A stretch of DNA of 35,528 nt from a virus (lineage: Duplodnaviria; Caudoviricetes), in IMG/VR virus record IMGVR_UViG_3300044723_001885, positions 1-35,528 of that record. One strand, written 5' to 3'. How positions within the stretch are numbered: position 1 is the first letter of the stretch; each line of letters starts with the position of its first letter. The notes under the pieces were generated by a model, which saw only the letters and a program-made list of their open reading frames with translations, did no database searches and was not told the origin of the DNA. Shown piece by piece: positions 30,643-35,528 of this stretch. Both the position numbers and the translations under genes were made by a program.

Positions 30643-31205
30643 TACGCATACTCAGACTGAAGATGCTCATCAATCTCAGCATCCTCATCAAGGTTGTCGT
30701 GCCAATTACCGCCATCGCTGTTCCACGCACCATGAAACCCCATGCCGTATTCAATATACTCAGCACGAACATGAAAACCCATGTCGTCCATGGCCTCATA
30801 TACAGGAAAAGGCGGTGACCACGCCGTATCGAACTTGAACACATGGACAACGCTGTCCATGCGATAGGTATACATCTCATCAGTGTCCCATGGGTTGCAG
30901 GCATCCCACTTCGTTCCCCAATGCTTAAGAGCCCAGTCATACCACGATGCTGTGCCATGCTCCTTCTTGATGGCTTCCAGTTCCTCGGCAGGGATAGCAA
31001 TGTCATTGCCGTCCTCATCACGCCGCCACTCATTGACATGAACACCGTCAATGGTGTTGCCGCCTGTGACGATGTCCTTCAAGACCTCGGGCATTGGGAC
31101 AATATGGTTGAACATCGCACCTTGCTTCAGGGCTTCAACCAATGCATCCATCTTTTCTTTGTCTGGATGCGAGACATAAACAACATTCTGACACCAGTTT
31201 GGCAT
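30642..31205 (-). CDS. DUF1281/YubB-like ferredoxin-fold protein
   Basis: MPNWC.N, WYDW...HWGTKW, F.FDTAWSPP, Y.E.GMGF.G; GGAG RBS. Confidence 0.8.
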   Translation of the reverse strand: MPNWCQNVVYVSHPDKEKMDALVEALKQGAMFNHIVPMPEVLKDIVTGGNTIDGVHVNEWRRDEDGNDIAIPAEELEAIKKEHGTASWYDWALKHWGTKWDACNPWDTDEMYTYRMDSVVHVFKFDTAWSPPFPVYEAMDDMGFHVRAEYIEYGMGFHGAWNSDGGNWHDNLDEDAEIDEHLQSEYA

Positions 31206-31239
31206 TTCAAAATCTCCATGTTTCATTGTTGATGAGTTA

Positions 31240-31268
31240 GTTATACATGAAAACAACATATGACGCAA
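31240..31268 (-). promoter_or_regulatory. Sigma70-type promoter of the long early operon
   Basis: TTGCGT-N17-TATAAC, about 35 nt upstream of ATG 31205. Confidence 0.65.
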
Positions 31269-31287
31269 TAGACTTTATATACATAAT

Positions 31288-31584
31288 TTGTCACGGTTGT
31301 CACGCTTGTCACGCTAATAAGAGTATTTCCTGAAAAAAAAAAAATAAAAAAATTTTTCTGTAGAAGTGTGACAAGTGTGACAAGTGTGACAAGGAAACAA
31401 AGGTCTTTGTTTTTCAACGCCTAGCGGATGAGATTTTTGTCACGGTACGTCACGTTTGTCACGGTACTAGGGTGCTATAAGGGTTTTTGACAGTATATAA
31501 TTTGTGGGATTTATGCGGAATCTTTGCTATAAAAGGGGTAGTACCGTGACAAGTGTGACAAATTTGGAGGACAAGTGTGACAAG
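31288..31584. repeat. Array of 12 GTCAC/GTGAC boxes in alternating orientation, with an A-tract
   Basis: TTGTCACG x3 (9-bp period, 31288-31313), A12TA7T5, AGTGTGACA x3 (31365-31391), GTCACG x3 (31437-31464), GTGACAA x3 (31546-31583). Confidence 0.95.
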
Positions 31585-32143
31585 ACTAGAAAAGGTTGTA
31601 GCTACCATCGAGGAAGAAACAGGACGCAAACTAACAAATCGTCAGCGTGAGTTCTCTCGATACTATGTAGAGGGGATTTATTCCAATACTGAATGTGCCA
31701 AGAAGGCAGGCTTCTCACCTGCCACGGCGGATGTCATGGCATCCAAATTGCTCAGTGGAAAATATCCTCATGTAACCGATCTAATACAGGAACTCAGGCA
31801 AGAGCGTGAACGGCGTTACGGCGTGACCGTGATCGGGCAACTCAAACGCCTTCAAGAACTGTCATTAGGGGCTGAAGATGCAGGCCAGTTCTCTGCCGCA
31901 ATTAACGCTGAGAAAATTAGATCAGCCCTTGGCGGCCTGACTGTTGATCGGCGAGAACAAATCCACCATCTGGATGACCTGTCGCGTGAAGAGATCACGG
32001 CAAGGTTGGCGCAACTCCGAAAAGAATACCCTCAAGCATTCATCGAGGGGGAATATACCGAGGTAAAGAATGGCGGCGGAGAAGAACTTTTGGAATACAG
32101 TCAAGAAGAATCTGCCGAAGGGTTGCTTCTCAACGAGGATTGA
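31577..32143 (+). CDS. terS: Terminase small subunit
   Basis: LTNRQREF...YV....NTECAKKAGFS...A...ASKLL HTH, A...GQFSAAINAE; GGAGG before GTG. Confidence 0.85.
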   Translation: MTRLEKVVATIEEETGRKLTNRQREFSRYYVEGIYSNTECAKKAGFSPATADVMASKLLSGKYPHVTDLIQELRQERERRYGVTVIGQLKRLQELSLGAEDAGQFSAAINAEKIRSALGGLTVDRREQIHHLDDLSREEITARLAQLRKEYPQAFIEGEYTEVKNGGGEELLEYSQEESAEGLLLNED

Positions 32144-32486
32144 AAACCGACACGGCGGCGGCGTGCCTGATGTGCATTTAGTTTGGTCTGGGCTTGTGTT
32201 TTGGATCGAATTAAAGGTAAGTAAAGGTAACACAGTTCGCCTCTCCCCAGAGCAAGTTGCTTGGAATACCGCTTATTCGCGCTCTGGTGGCCTTAGTTTC
32301 ATCTTGGTTAAAGACCCGAGGGACAGGAGTCTATTTTTATTTGGGGGCTCTGACGCGGCTCTGGTGGCCAAAGAAGGCCTGCGGTCTGCCTGCGCCCTGT
32401 ATCATGGTTCTAGTTTCGAGGAACTGTGGACGTGCCTGCGGTCTGCCTGCGTGCCTGCGCCTTGTAATGAAGGGGAAGAGGCATGA
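32070..32486 (+). CDS. PD-(D/E)XK Holliday-junction resolvase / VRR-NUC-like nuclease
   Basis: E..FW..VK, RIEN..G.GVPD, WIELKV, LSPEQVAW.......GG.SFILV. Confidence 0.8.
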   Translation: MAAEKNFWNTVKKNLPKGCFSTRIENRHGGGVPDVHLVWSGLVFWIELKVSKGNTVRLSPEQVAWNTAYSRSGGLSFILVKDPRDRSLFLFGGSDAALVAKEGLRSACALYHGSSFEELWTCLRSACVPAPCNEGEEA

Positions 32487-32545
32487 GCCTGCGTGCCTGC
32501 GCCCTGCGCCCTGCGCCTTGGCTGATATAATCAAGAGTAGGCATG

Positions 32546-32577
32546 AAAAAAAACCATAGGCCTATAGGCCTATGGTT
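32546..32577 (-). terminator. Terminator after the GP88-like gene
   Basis: Perfect 26-bp palindrome AACCATAGGCCTATAGGCCTATGGTT (32552-32577), followed by a T-run on the minus strand. Confidence 0.8.
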
Positions 32578-32585
32578 AATCCGGT

Positions 32586-33248
32586 TTAGTGTGTTAGGAA
32601 TATCACTTGCCTGTTGGGTTGATCCCAACATAGCGTGCATGTTCCGCAACCATCATGGCCTTGCTGTTCAGGGCAGATGATGGCCTTGCCCTTTTCTGGT
32701 GATTGTAAGGCCTCACTATTGGCACTGTAGGCCAGATCTGGCCTATCTGACCAACGGATAGAAAACCGCTTGCCGAAAGTCTGGCGCGTGTTGTCAATTG
32801 CCCTGGCAATATTGCGCTCTAATTTAACCGGGCTGTCCGGGTGATTATGTGTGTATCCCCATATTGCAATGTTAGGATATTTTGCCAGCCAGCCAGCCCA
32901 TGCGTTAACGTATTCAGGCGACCAAAAATCACCTAGTATATGAAGGCGGATTAATAAAGACTTGCCCTTGTGCTCTTTTAATTCTTGATCAATCCGGTTA
33001 ATCAATTCTTGACCATGCTCTAGCCTATGGGCAAAGGGCATATTGTTCCCAAAGCATGTATTCCAGTGATGGCATGATGATGGGCACGTTGCGCGCTCTT
33101 CTAGCGTCAAGGTCATGATCTTATAACCTTTAAATGCGCCAGCTTTAACGCCTGCTTTTAGCTTTTTATTACTGGAAAATTTTAAGACTTTATACGGATA
33201 ATCGGCCAGCTTGCGCTTGCTCTTTTGATATCGTGTTGCTGTTAACAT
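32586..33248 (-). CDS. GP88-like (gene product 88) phage protein
   Basis: N.KL, LTLEERATCP.SC.....C.GNNMPFAHR, RLHILGDF, WGYT, CPEQ....C.TC.LCW; start reassigned to ATG 33248 after GGAAGG. Confidence 0.7.
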   Translation of the reverse strand: MLTATRYQKSKRKLADYPYKVLKFSSNKKLKAGVKAGAFKGYKIMTLTLEERATCPSSCHHWNTCFGNNMPFAHRLEHGQELINRIDQELKEHKGKSLLIRLHILGDFWSPEYVNAWAGWLAKYPNIAIWGYTHNHPDSPVKLERNIARAIDNTRQTFGKRFSIRWSDRPDLAYSANSEALQSPEKGKAIICPEQQGHDGCGTCTLCWDQPNRQVIFLTH

Positions 33249-33284
33249 AATGTTTCCTTCCATAATTCTGTTGCTGCATAGTTT

Positions 33285-33312
33285 ATTATACATAAAACTA
33301 TTTACTTTGCAA
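33285..33312 (-). promoter_or_regulatory. Sigma70-type promoter of the GP88-like gene
   Basis: TTGCAA-N16-TATAAT. Confidence 0.7.
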
Positions 33313-33350
33313 GGCCTGCGTGCCTGCGGCCTGCGCCCCTTCTATATATG

Positions 33351-33382
33351 AAAAAACTCCTAGGTATAGTTATACCTAGGAG
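33351..33382 (-). terminator. Terminator of the putative sRNA
   Basis: CTCCTAGGTATA-AC-TATACCTAGGAG-TTTTTT on the minus strand. Confidence 0.8.
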
Positions 33383-33416
33383 CCTTGCATCAACATGGGA
33401 TATGGAGGCATCCCAT
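33351..33416 (-). ncRNA. Putative small regulatory RNA with an anti-Shine-Dalgarno loop
   Basis: Own promoter and terminator and no translatable ORF; 5' hairpin GGGAUG-CCUCCA-UAUCCC, linker AUGUUGAUGCAAGG, 12-bp terminator stem, U6. Confidence 0.7.
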
Positions 33417-33420
33417 CCCT

Positions 33421-33450
33421 GTTATACAGTCAGCCCCAGCAATCGGTCAA
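33421..33450 (-). promoter_or_regulatory. Promoter of the putative sRNA
   Basis: TTGACC-N18-TATAAC directly after the preceding terminator's T-run. Confidence 0.65.
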
Positions 33451-33482
33451 TAAAAAACAGGGGCAGGTTTCCCTGCCCCTGT
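33451..33482 (-). terminator. Terminator of the 34081/33770 two-gene unit
   Basis: ACAGGGGCAGG-GAAA-CCTGCCCCTGT followed by a T-run on the minus strand. Confidence 0.85.
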
Positions 33483-33497
33483 CCGCCCTATGGAGGC

Positions 33498-33770
33498 TTA
33501 CTTAACTATCCTAGGCCATGTTCTGGGATTATCCCTATGATCCTCATCAGGGATATACCTATCGCGGATTTCATATTTAACGCCCATGCTATCCAATTTG
33601 TTCAGATATTTTGGGAAATCCACATCTTCTTCTAAGGCATAGATTTCACCGTTTGGCGTTTGATAACTGAAATCACTGAAATCGGCAGGCGCAATGCGCG
33701 CCTGCTTTAATTGTTCCGCTGATACAATGCCCCAGCCATGGCCGTTATCTGTAATGCATACGATATTCAT
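33498..33770 (-). CDS. Conserved hypothetical phage protein
   Basis: TAATG coupling; D.GHGW..V...L......FS.FSY.......LEED.D pattern. Confidence 0.7.
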   Translation of the reverse strand: MNIVCITDNGHGWGIVSAEQLKQARIAPADFSDFSYQTPNGEIYALEEDVDFPKYLNKLDSMGVKYEIRDRYIPDEDHRDNPRTWPRIVK

Positions 33771-34081
33771 TATTCTTTCCCTCCATAGATTTCCGCCCAT
33801 TCATCTGTGCAATCGACTAGCTTGAAGTTATGCGCGATTTCCAAGGCGTACTGATCACCGAAATCCCAGCCGCCAAATGTCATATCCGACTTGGCCGCCG
33901 TAAACCAGCGTGCATACTGGTCTTTCTTTTCGTTTTCTGCCAGTTTATAGGTTTTTAGAATAGCGACTGTTGTTTCGCCCCAGCCGCCAAAATTACCTTT
34001 GAACAAGGCATATGGTTCAGTCTTTCCGCTTACAAAATCCTGAATGTTAATTGATTTACTAAATGGGTTTTTCTTTCTCAT
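33770..34081 (-). CDS. Conserved hypothetical phage protein
   Basis: KNPF.KS...PYA.F...LKTYK...NE.KD.YARWF.AAKS.MTFG.W..GD.Y; GGAGG RBS. Confidence 0.7.
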   Translation of the reverse strand: MRKKNPFSKSINIQDFVSGKTEPYALFKGNFGGWGETTVAILKTYKLAENEKKDQYARWFTAAKSDMTFGGWDFGDQYALEIAHNFKLVDCTDEWAEIYGGKE

Positions 34082-34127
34082 AATATCCCTCCATAGGATG
34101 CAAGTTTAGGCGTCATTGCCTATAGTC

Positions 34128-34157
34128 ATTATAATACGAAACACAAGCAAAACACAA
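34128..34157 (-). promoter_or_regulatory. Putative promoter of the 34081 unit
   Basis: TTGTGT-N18-TATAAT. Confidence 0.55.
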
Positions 34158-34264
34158 CAGGAAATATTGCCTGCCTGCCTGCGCCTGCGCCCCTGTTTCT
34201 ATAATAGAAAACCACGGCCTGCCTGCGCCTGCGCCTGCGCCCCCGCATTATAAAGAAGAAGAAA

Positions 34265-34678
34265 AAAGAAACTGGGACAGCAAATGCTGTCCCAGTCTGG
34301 TTCATTTGGCATGAGGCTGGTTCATGTGTTTCAGGCGGCATTTTTTCGCACAGGAAGATTCCCCCTGCATAACAAAACTACATCGCCCTATGATCCCATT
34401 GACATAGTAGTAATAGCCATGATGTTTTCCGTGTTTGGTCACCGGAAATACCGGACACTTCCAGACAGTAGGATCCATATTATCTTGCGTATATTTGTCA
34501 AGAAGACCTTCCAGCCCATTGAATCTTTCGATCCAATCCGATTCAACTGTGACAGGATGATAGATTTTAATTCCATCACTCGTATACCAAATTGCACAGC
34601 TCGCGGAGTATTTCTTTCCCATCTTTACCTCCATAGTTTCAAAGAAACTGGGACAGCAAGTGCTGTCCCAGTCTGGTT
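34265..34678. repeat. 38-bp direct repeat (one mismatch) containing a 12-bp hairpin; two copies
   Basis: AAAGAAACTGGGACAGCAA[A/G]TGCTGTCCCAGTCTGGTT at 34265-34302 and 34641-34678, each just after a minus-strand stop codon; terminator-like. Confidence 0.95.
34302..34622 (-). CDS. Hypothetical protein
   Basis: Starts MGKKYS after the repeated AAACTATGGAGGTAAAG leader. Confidence 0.6.
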   Translation of the reverse strand: MGKKYSASCAIWYTSDGIKIYHPVTVESDWIERFNGLEGLLDKYTQDNMDPTVWKCPVFPVTKHGKHHGYYYYVNGIIGRCSFVMQGESSCAKKCRLKHMNQPHAK

Positions 34679-34914
34679 TAACGGATCAGTTTCAGTTTGT
34701 CATGCTCAAGCCGATAGAACTTGATCGAGTGAAACTCTTCCCCTCGAGCAGGTCGTTTACCGACCGTGATGACCTGTCCATCACAAGATTTACTGGGGAA
34801 TGCCTTATTTAACTTGGCTAGTTTTTCCCCGGCTTCTTTGAGTGACGAAGCACAAGACCAGATAATAGCATAACTATTGATCTGAGTCGGTGTGTGATAC
34901 CATATCTTACCCAT
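34678..34914 (-). CDS. Hypothetical protein
   Basis: Starts MGKIWY after the repeated leader. Confidence 0.6.
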   Translation of the reverse strand: MGKIWYHTPTQINSYAIIWSCASSLKEAGEKLAKLNKAFPSKSCDGQVITVGKRPARGEEFHSIKFYRLEHDKLKLIR

Positions 34915-35119
34915 CTTTACCTCCATAGTTTGATAGTGTTTCCGCCGTTTCAAGAACATCAAGAGTATGCATGAGTTTGTTGCGAGTATAAAAATACTCA
35001 TCTGCTCCGAACTCTACTGATGCTTTGATGTCTTTTCGGACAATATCAATTAGTTCTTCGGTGCACAGTGGATGGTTAAATAACTTCATCCAATATTGCT
35101 TTAGTTCTTTAGTGACCAT
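34907..35119 (-). CDS. Hypothetical protein
   Basis: Starts MVTKEL after the repeated leader; reads through the next leader. Confidence 0.6.
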   Translation of the reverse strand: MVTKELKQYWMKLFNHPLCTEELIDIVRKDIKASVEFGADEYFYTRNKLMHTLDVLETAETLSNYGGKDG

Positions 35120-35145
35120 CTTTACCTCCATAGTTTGATGGTGAT

Positions 35146-35525
35146 GGTGGGGAGCATTGTGCTCCCCACCGGAGTGATTAGAACCAGAAGAACTTGGTTC
35201 TTGGATTGCCTACTCTCTTGACCTTGTCGAACTCTTCTTGACCATACAGTTCGATGAACTGATCTTTGGTCGGTGCAAGTTCGGATGGCTTCGAGATGGC
35301 TTTTCTCTCTCCAACCCCAGTCTCTTCTCCCATCTTCTCGAGAGTTGATTTTGCCTCGGTCAATCTCTTCAGCATGAACTCGACAAGTTCATGCTGATCT
35401 TTCAATGCCAGTTCATCGAACTGGTCGATCGTGCCGAGTTGGGGATCAGGAAAGATATCCGTCATCTTGAGTGCTTGATTGTTCATAACTACCTCCATAG
35501 TTGAGGGGAGCATTGTGCTCCCCTC
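35146..35525. repeat. Second hairpin family GGGGAGCA-TTG-TGCTCCCC; two copies
   Basis: 35146-35170 and 35503-35525, each immediately upstream (minus sense) of a leader; no U-tract. Confidence 0.9.
35178..35486 (-). CDS. Hypothetical protein
   Basis: Starts MNNQALK after the variant leader. Confidence 0.65.
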   Translation of the reverse strand: MNNQALKMTDIFPDPQLGTIDQFDELALKDQHELVEFMLKRLTEAKSTLEKMGEETGVGERKAISKPSELAPTKDQFIELYGQEEFDKVKRVGNPRTKFFWF

Positions 35526-35528
35526 GAC

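Follow-up and report, generated by a model that had tools for sequence, protein, structure and literature searches.

The window analysed here, the whole 35,528-nucleotide viral record IMGVR_UViG_3300044723_001885, carries on its minus strand, at 33450-33351, a short segment that an earlier note, made from the letters alone, had read as the gene of a phage small RNA. According to that note, an anti-Shine-Dalgarno (anti-SD) loop and a second seed in the linker behind it pair with the leaders of several of the phage's own early genes. The locus raises the question of whether this segment is an RNA gene at all, and whether its complementarity to the early leaders goes beyond the general likeness of one ribosome-binding site to another.

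The predicted RNA gene and its surroundings

The record has a GC content of 46.7%. Its PolA, helicase, primase, SNF2 helicase and TerS are closest to those of HTVC023P, HTVC027P and psg01, with identities to psg01, HTVC023P, HTVC027P or DSL-LC04 of 48-54% for PolA, 48-51% for the SNF2 helicase and 33-37% for TerS, and these protein comparisons place the window as a distant relative within the HTVC023P type. HTVC027P, which belongs to this type, is described as lytic (PMC12753301), and no antirepressor or integrase was found among the window ORFs scanned, the record being about 61% complete. A search for the host by genome scans returned no TerS relative and one contig that looks mis-binned.

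The segment sits in a block of small minus-strand genes (32586-35528) that faces TerS and the endonuclease and whose genes we take, from their anatomy, to be early. Genes of this block are set apart by promoters and terminators and are swapped among strains at repeated spacers; related-strain contigs skip or replace whole cassettes at the repeats, which suggests that the cassettes behave as exchangeable modules. Spacers made of a hairpin plus a leader bound the small early genes repeatedly (34269-34298, 34645-34675, 35151-35172 and 35504-35525, with the leaders of 34622, 34914 and 35119). Directly downstream of the segment is a GP88-like gene (32586-33248, minus strand; PF17338, E = 1.2e-10). 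A comparison of this slot with that of four related loci (L019, L020, L041 and L052) shows that it is occupied by four or more proteins that are distant relatives or unrelated, several being rich in cysteine, and that a complementary leader is kept. The conserved small gene upstream (33498-33770, minus strand), which has 43 homologs and served as a synteny marker, is without a match in Pfam or PHROG, and none of the 43 homologs is functionally named. Each early transcription unit is bordered by short tandem repeats of the CCTGCG type in like orientation (32440-32525, 33316-33340 and 34165-34225), their place being taken in other clades by CCCGA-type repeats. Clusters of GTGACA/TGTCAC repeats in both orientations lie between the left operon and TerS (31280-31400 and 31435-31585) and mark a candidate origin, packaging or regulator-binding region.

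Read along the minus strand of this HTVC023P-type phage, positions 33450-33351 comprise a promoter, followed by a hairpin that has CCUCCA as its loop, then a linker and a terminator, and the coordinates and letters quoted in the earlier note were all found in the sequence. The sigma70-type promoter (33421-33450, minus strand) consists of TTGACC at 33450-33445 and TATAAC at 33426-33421, separated by a spacer of 18 nt. A simple consensus scanner listed neither this promoter nor the unit's own terminator, and the promoter call in the window therefore leans on conservation. The predicted small RNA (33351-33418, minus strand), indicated by its fold and by the covariance model described below, would be about 65-70 nt long, with a start placed at 33418 +/- 3. 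Its fold has an energy of -30.2 kcal/mol (z = -4.9), much of it supplied by the terminator, and none of 200 shuffled sequences is as stable.

Hairpin 1 (33395-33416, minus strand) has an 8-bp stem, in which 33416-33409 pair with 33402-33395, and a CCTCCA loop at 33408-33403 that is enclosed by 15 different stem families among the relatives. This loop carries seed 1, CCUCCAUA (33408-33401, minus strand). The 12-nt linker between hairpin 1 and the terminator (33394-33383) is mostly unpaired and provides seed 2 (33384-33396, minus strand), a clade-restricted sequence that is complementary to promoter-proximal early mRNAs in their 5' part. The intrinsic terminator (33351-33382, minus strand) is indicated by sequence, fold and paired changes across the family. 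It ends in U6 at 33356-33351, as had been noted earlier, and in place of the 12-bp stem given there it has an 11-bp core round a 4-nt loop, which extends to 15 bp once G-U pairs are added.

An overlapping ORF of 95 codons runs over the unit on the plus strand. We rejected it as a gene, as its 95-aa product has no match in Pfam or PHROG and the frame is retained in none of the seven close relatives checked, where the open frames measure 25-60 codons; the description of the unit as ORF-less therefore stands in effect. Transcription of the unit in the opposite direction was rejected because only the minus strand gives the hairpin a U run. We also rejected the idea that the unit is a leader or attenuator of the GP88-like gene, since this gene has its own promoter behind the unit's terminator and other genes are inserted between the two in relatives. 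An Rfam scan, which the earlier note had called for, yielded no hits at gathering score in the window and none relevant at E <= 1 in nine related loci. RNA run X20 (share 0.16) yielded nothing but related-strain contigs, whose depth stays flat over the unit and both terminators, and contigs cannot reveal starts, ends or strand. On sequence grounds, the unit's own promoter, its intrinsic terminator and its lack of a conserved ORF are as expected of a trans-acting base-pairing small RNA.

Units at the equivalent place in related phages

Relatives were fetched through the neighbouring proteins, without use of the motif, and a promoter-hairpin-terminator unit with compensatory stems recurs in them at the equivalent place, as would be expected from the search suggested in the earlier note. 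It is present in 47 of the 48 related loci whose upstream gene has at least 55% identity and whose sequence extends at least 1.7 kb downstream, and in none of eight distant loci. Stems and promoter spacers are replaced across the family and the loop is retained: the L019 unit has an altered spacer and a compensated terminator, and those of L020 and L021 have wholly different stems enclosing an identical loop. A motif-and-fold detector returned 62 distinct hits in 121 locus hits, 53 of which were kept after removal of 3'-UTR copies and of six divergent or doubtful rows (L190, L218, L268, L170, L174 and L176). Because the detectors demanded CTCC, the invariance of the loop is partly by construction.

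A covariance model built from 32 of the 53 units matches the window unit, itself one of the training sequences, at 40.1 bits. In one set, 22 of 85 sources score at least 26.9 bits, the next score being 19.8, and in another 55 of 100 sources score at least 33.4 bits, the next being 23.4, these counts including the 32 training sequences and some loci that are one contig fetched twice. There is one match per locus, and all matches are on the early-gene strand. Fourteen of 15 pairs change on both sides in the model alignment, which was fitted to the model and includes eight weak rows, with a covariation score of 0.55 against 0.19 for shuffled and at most 0.19 for slid alignments; the terminator shows changes on both sides at 9 of 9 model pairs. 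An arm-swap test on the 15 stem families, which is independent of the model alignment, gave -6.7 kcal/mol for cognate and -3.2 kcal/mol for swapped arms, a difference reached in 0 of 100,000 permutations.

The promoter is conserved in much of the family. A pattern of the form TTG...-N16-18-TA..., located 1-10 nt before the stem, occurs in 36 of the 53 distinct units compared with 4.6% in shuffles, and the closest relatives keep both hexamers with a varying spacer. Most -10 boxes of the family are without the last T, a feature typical of alphaproteobacterial promoters. In L045, L166, L261 and L272 the promoter spacer (17-18 nt) frequently contains an inverted repeat, which might be an operator where a regulator of the RNA binds; the window shows no evident repeat of this kind.

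A recognisable promoter is missing in 17 of the 53 units, and those of L041, L043, L144 and L282 directly follow a stop codon, as would suit an element that acts mainly in cis, a 3'-UTR anti-SD sequence that folds back on the ribosome-binding site belonging to its own operon, being transcribed by read-through or lying directly behind the last gene. A second anti-leader copy, absent from the earlier note, points the same way: CCTCCATAGG (33487-33496, minus strand) lies between the stop codon and the terminator of the upstream operon, within its 3' UTR and immediately behind the stop. Such a copy lies at most 16 nt from the stop in 51 of 91 homologous genes (e.g., in L133, L045, L020 and L230) and pairs best with the leader of its own operon in 19 of 31 cases. 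There is a precedent in icaR of Staphylococcus aureus, where an anti-SD sequence in the 3' UTR pairs with the SD of its own mRNA (PMC3868564), and the second copy is possibly an icaR-like fold-back brake in cis or the source of a 3'-UTR-derived RNA. For the main unit we consider cis action improbable, because a strong terminator (33455-33484, minus strand, found by terminator scan) and the conserved promoter, whose pattern recurs in 36 of 53 units, divide it from the upstream operon, and because seed 2 matches the leaders of four transcription units, two of them downstream. The cis explanation suits the copy at 33496-33487 better.

Outside the kept set, L170 (1420-1530), L174, L176 and L268 (3420-3525), all on the plus strand, combine a promoter and a terminator with a hairpin whose loop is CCUCCC, in a clade whose leaders read GGAGG(G); in the L170 class the terminator loop contains CCUCC once more. 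These units possibly form a sister family.

The family model scored no higher than 13.2 bits in the fetched regions of six phage genomes (CRP-901 and CRP-5 whole, the first 50 kb each of psg01 and DSL-LC04, and 18 kb each of HTVC023P and HTVC027P), so that no cultured carrier is known, and BLASTN of 31000-35528 against cultured phages was likewise without a match. An exact search for the hairpin recovered one near-identical contig only. A two-motif pattern scan returned 24 stretches, five of which are true relatives (L029, L124, L126, L127 and L020) and 19 apparently chance matches.

Complementarity between the RNA and the early leaders

The early leaders of the window have in common an unusual UAUGGAGG site. 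TATGGAGG occurs in six minus-strand copies, all at 33780-35492, and in the opposite sense only twice, in the unit's loop (33401) and at 33496-33489. It is the 8-nt sequence that the earlier note had ascribed to five leaders, and it was found at each of them on the minus strand: 33780-33787 for gene 33770, 34628-34635 for gene 34622, 34920-34927 for gene 34914, 35125-35132 for gene 35119 and 35492-35499 for gene 35486. Three further leaders match both seeds exactly as had been described. The leader of gene 34081 (34082-34104, minus strand; matches at 34088-34095 and 34097-34104) has the best two-seed score in the window, and pairing scores also predict as targets the leader of the GP88-like gene (33249-33278, minus strand; matches at 33259-33264 and 33269-33278), which has its own promoter at 33312-33285, and that of gene 31205, the first gene of the left operon (31206-31234, minus strand; matches at 31214-31219 and 31227-31234). 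The triplet (U/C)AU precedes GGAG in 7 of 7 early starts against 1 of 16 other GGAG starts.

The expectation that early leaders would outrank late ribosome-binding sites in pairing energy found weak support. Early starts are enriched relative to other GGAG-containing starts (p = 0.028; 7 vs 16), and 5 of the top 7 starts are early when the two seeds are summed, but the groups are not cleanly separated: a home-made single-duplex ranking with an approximate correction for accessibility, which cannot score two seeds, places the eight early leaders at ranks 2, 4, 7, 13, 14, 18, 20 and 25 of 46 starts, and with seed 1 alone the late-gene sites 10620 and 1551 equal the best early sites. GGAGGC(A) sites of other genes pair over 7-9 bp with seed 1, and the GGAGGCA sites of the left operon may be real extra targets or off-targets. 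The best single score in the accessibility ranking belongs to a 9-bp pairing of seed 2 with the first codons of gene 29180, which may be chance.

The earlier note had also considered a multi-target antitoxin. A type I antitoxin is an RNA antisense to a single toxin mRNA, whose protein is toxic; the predicted targets in the window are several and lie on the RNA's own strand, rather than forming one antisense partner, and the small target genes are without a named family.

Covariation between seed and leader was the comparative check that the earlier note had proposed, and the loop flanks do covary with each phage's own early leaders. A U stands immediately before GGAG in 94 of 101 distinct leaders, at a position where 16S pairing would favour A. 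Across 13 seed classes (3 of 16, with fewer than three leaders each, were left out), cognate combinations reach 9.6 contiguous bp and -16.4 kcal/mol against 8.4 bp and -14.5 kcal/mol for non-cognate ones, with a permutation p <= 1e-5 that ignores relatedness; the window's own seed class is without cognate preference (-13.9 against -13.2 to -13.8).

Seed and leader changes were placed on a TerS and endonuclease tree of 37 loci, in which units commonly have UAGU ahead of the loop and leaders of the form GGAGG-AC/AU. Nested among the UAGU-type units, L140 has GUUGC before the loop (UAGU to UUGC), and five of its five scored leaders read GGAGGGCA (GGAGG-GC). The L020 clade has AUGA before the loop and mostly GGAGG-U leaders, and the window's clade has GAUG and GGAGG-UA leaders. 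The tree gives about three clean compensatory shifts and one counter-example, the clade of L045, L191 and L192, in which many leaders have moved to GGAGGU with an unchanged RNA; about three shifts are 3' of the SD and two or three are 5' of it. On the 5' side of the SD, UUGGAG leaders accompany CCUCCAA RNAs in 10 of 31 cases against 4 of 65 otherwise (p = 0.0014), and the L052 unit has a perfect 13-nt match to its own first leader. At the level of sequence, the loop flanks match the leaders lineage by lineage, and on the small-gene cassettes the leader has the form U(A/U)UGGAGG and is specific to each phage. A further mark of a trans-acting small RNA is that it shares short complementary stretches, covarying between the two, with targets encoded elsewhere; here such covariation is seen in few independent events, with one counter-example.

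More distant relatives have a different element in the equivalent slot before the GP88-like gene, an apparent H-type pseudoknot, read by eye, followed by a pyrimidine tract and a terminator. It is found on the plus strand at 4215-4295 of L002, and also in L003-L006, and on the strand opposite TerS in L054, L059, L068, L069, L078, L080, L083, L085, L086, L089 and L105. In L080 and L089 the pyrimidine tract is the complement of a GAAAGGAAA(G) site on 3 and 4, respectively, of the listed early leaders, and in L002 and L004 it matches GGAGGGU leaders. That the tracts complement each phage's own, differing leader indicates that the seed follows the phage leader and is not a fixed 16S mimic.

These flanks and tracts bear on the notion of a general anti-SD RNA that would chiefly damp host translation and match the phage leaders as a by-product. 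Any GGAGG can be paired by CCUCC, the scores of several phage sites that are not early equal those of early ones, and anti-SD loops are known from the cuckoo RNAs (PMC4615179). We nevertheless hold a main role in host translation to be quite improbable, given that the flanks beyond CCUCC track the phage's own leaders and that the analogue in L080 and L089 is without CCUCC and matches its own GAAAGGAAAG leaders.

Deviations from perfect complementarity between seed and leader are biased towards wobble pairs (52 of 92 where the RNA has G or U, against 12 of 84 transitions where it has A or C), which indicates recognition of RNA rather than of double-stranded DNA, although hairpins in the leaders could also produce the bias, UGGA sitting in a hairpin loop in 68 of the 105 distinct leaders. 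The possibility concerned is that the motif is a DNA operator or recombination repeat, whose inverted copy is a binding site or the scar of an inverted duplication that by chance precedes a terminator. The leaders are repeated and cassettes are exchanged at repeats, a protein that changed its specificity would likewise make all sites covary, and the start-associated sequences of Cluster K mycobacteriophages include single inverted copies whose function was left undetermined (PMC3203893). Besides the G-U bias, what makes a DNA site very improbable is that the inverted copy is always in a hairpin loop held by unrelated stems, in a unit that follows a promoter and precedes a one-directional terminator.

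The leader hairpins themselves suggest a CsrA- or RegA-like protein, for whose sites the RNA would compete, or which it would remodel, rather than simply blocking ribosomes; UGGA in the loop of these 68 leaders resembles the ANGGA loop bound by CsrA. Such a protein is absent among the 48 and 39 window ORFs scanned in this partial record (about 61% complete), pairing would cover the SD anyway, and leader hairpins are equally explained as kissing partners, so that this scheme too strikes us as having very little probability.

A mere coincidence of SD sequences had been disputed in the earlier note on the strength of matches outside the SD, and the behaviour of seed 2 sustains that argument. Its pairing with four promoter-proximal leaders sums to -45.8 kcal/mol against -23.5 +/- 4.9 kcal/mol for shuffled seeds, with 0 of 5000 as good. 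It pairs with the 5' part of the three leaders already named (31205, GP88-like and 34081) and over 10 bp with a fourth, that of the first early gene, which is outside the window and was read in the near-identical L001. Seed 2 is identical up to TGCA in eight close relatives (L019 and L223-L229), shorter in the L020 clade and absent in most other clades, and is thus confined to two clades instead of marking the family as a whole. As the leader motif complementary to the linker occurs also in clades without the linker, seed 2 is best seen as a gain by two clades and not as family-wide covariation.

Proposed mechanism and comparison with known systems

The unit probably makes a trans-acting RNA of about 65-70 nt that represses early translation, working like the C4 RNA of P1 and the cuckoo RNAs and belonging to neither family. 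From the conservation, structure and complementarity described above we infer its transcription, its pairing in vivo, repression and the timing of early expression. The host sigma70 polymerase would transcribe the RNA along with the early genes, and the loop would then nucleate on a leader, where a loop-loop start is plausible because most leaders of the family are small hairpins with UGGA in the loop. Pairing would spread into the stem arms or, in the window's clade, through the linker onto the 5' ends of promoter-proximal mRNAs, and the covered SD would shut out the 30S subunit. Being short and closed by hairpins at both ends, the RNA could accumulate and trim early-protein synthesis to a pulse, one switch serving freely swapped cassettes.

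If the RNA works as predicted, a phage from a group described as lytic would time its early genes post-transcriptionally, without a repressor protein, and new cassettes would join the regulon merely by bearing the leader. A more speculative extension, which we regard as rather unlikely, is an RNA-addressed early regulon in lytic marine podophages, in which the ribosome-binding site of each cassette is a lineage address and one RNA both ends early expression and silences the first genes of a kin phage arriving later. In effect, an RNA would exclude superinfection, and a few nucleotides would set the immunity type. The sister lineages with the pseudoknot element would then seem to have arrived at such a function a second time, on another scaffold. 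The window, L020, L133 and L140 are natural cognate and non-cognate pairs that would be cheap to compare.

Comparison among relatives gives good evidence that the RNA pairs with the early leaders of the phage that encodes it, and it argues for a real small RNA family, apparently undescribed, in a group of uncultured marine phages. No description of it was found in the literature searched, and five short motifs are absent from six supplementary files of a phage candidate-RNA catalogue (PMC10690425), three further files lying outside the search. The phage small RNAs reviewed in PMC12197685 are for the most part those of temperate phages, with a single phage gene or host genes as their targets, and none of the examples given there is a single RNA tuned to the whole set of a phage's own leaders.

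The cuckoo, alpha-r14 and CcsR RNAs of Alphaproteobacteria have two to four hairpins, each with CCUCCUCCC, and are encoded on bacterial replicons (PMC4615179). The present RNA resembles them in its anti-SD motif in a hairpin loop and in highly variable stems, but it has one seed hairpin and a terminator in place of two to four motif-bearing hairpins, and it matches no Rfam model in the window or the nine related loci. The invariant part of its loop is CCUCCA(U/A) rather than CCUCCUCCC, and it is phage-borne and tuned to the non-canonical UGGAGG leader of the phage's own genes.

Cluster K mycobacteriophages have repeated extended SD sequences (SAS/ESAS) before non-structural genes that follow large intergenic gaps, with a single copy in opposite orientation unlinked to a gene start, and the authors left open whether the partner is an RNA or a protein (PMC3203893). 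Repeated extended SD leaders and a lone inverted copy are common to both cases, although sequence, host and phage differ. The inverted copy described here sits in a promoter-hairpin-terminator unit with covariation, whereas the account of SAS in that paper, as far as it covers the inverted copy, describes no RNA gene. The present case offers a testable answer for SAS, as to what binds the repeated extended SD and what the lone inverted copy is for. The likeness to icaR is confined to the second anti-leader copy at 33496-33487, as the main unit has its own promoter and several predicted targets.

The C4 RNA of P1 and P7 (RF01695) is phage-encoded and trans-acting, about 77 nt long, with two short seeds, one of which partly covers the ribosome-binding site while the other binds upstream and gives specificity; changes in the seeds accompany changes in the targets between related phages (PMC5320573). 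Two seeds, occlusion of the ribosome-binding site and specificity set by the seeds are features of the present RNA as well, as predictions here, with seed 2 found in the window's clade and missing in most others. Three stem-loops, processing by RNase P and a role in immunity and lysogeny characterise C4 (PMC5320573). The present RNA, in contrast to these three stem-loops, has one hairpin and a terminator, its own promoter and no Rfam match; its targets would be five to eight separate leaders, and the phage type concerned is described as lytic (PMC12753301).
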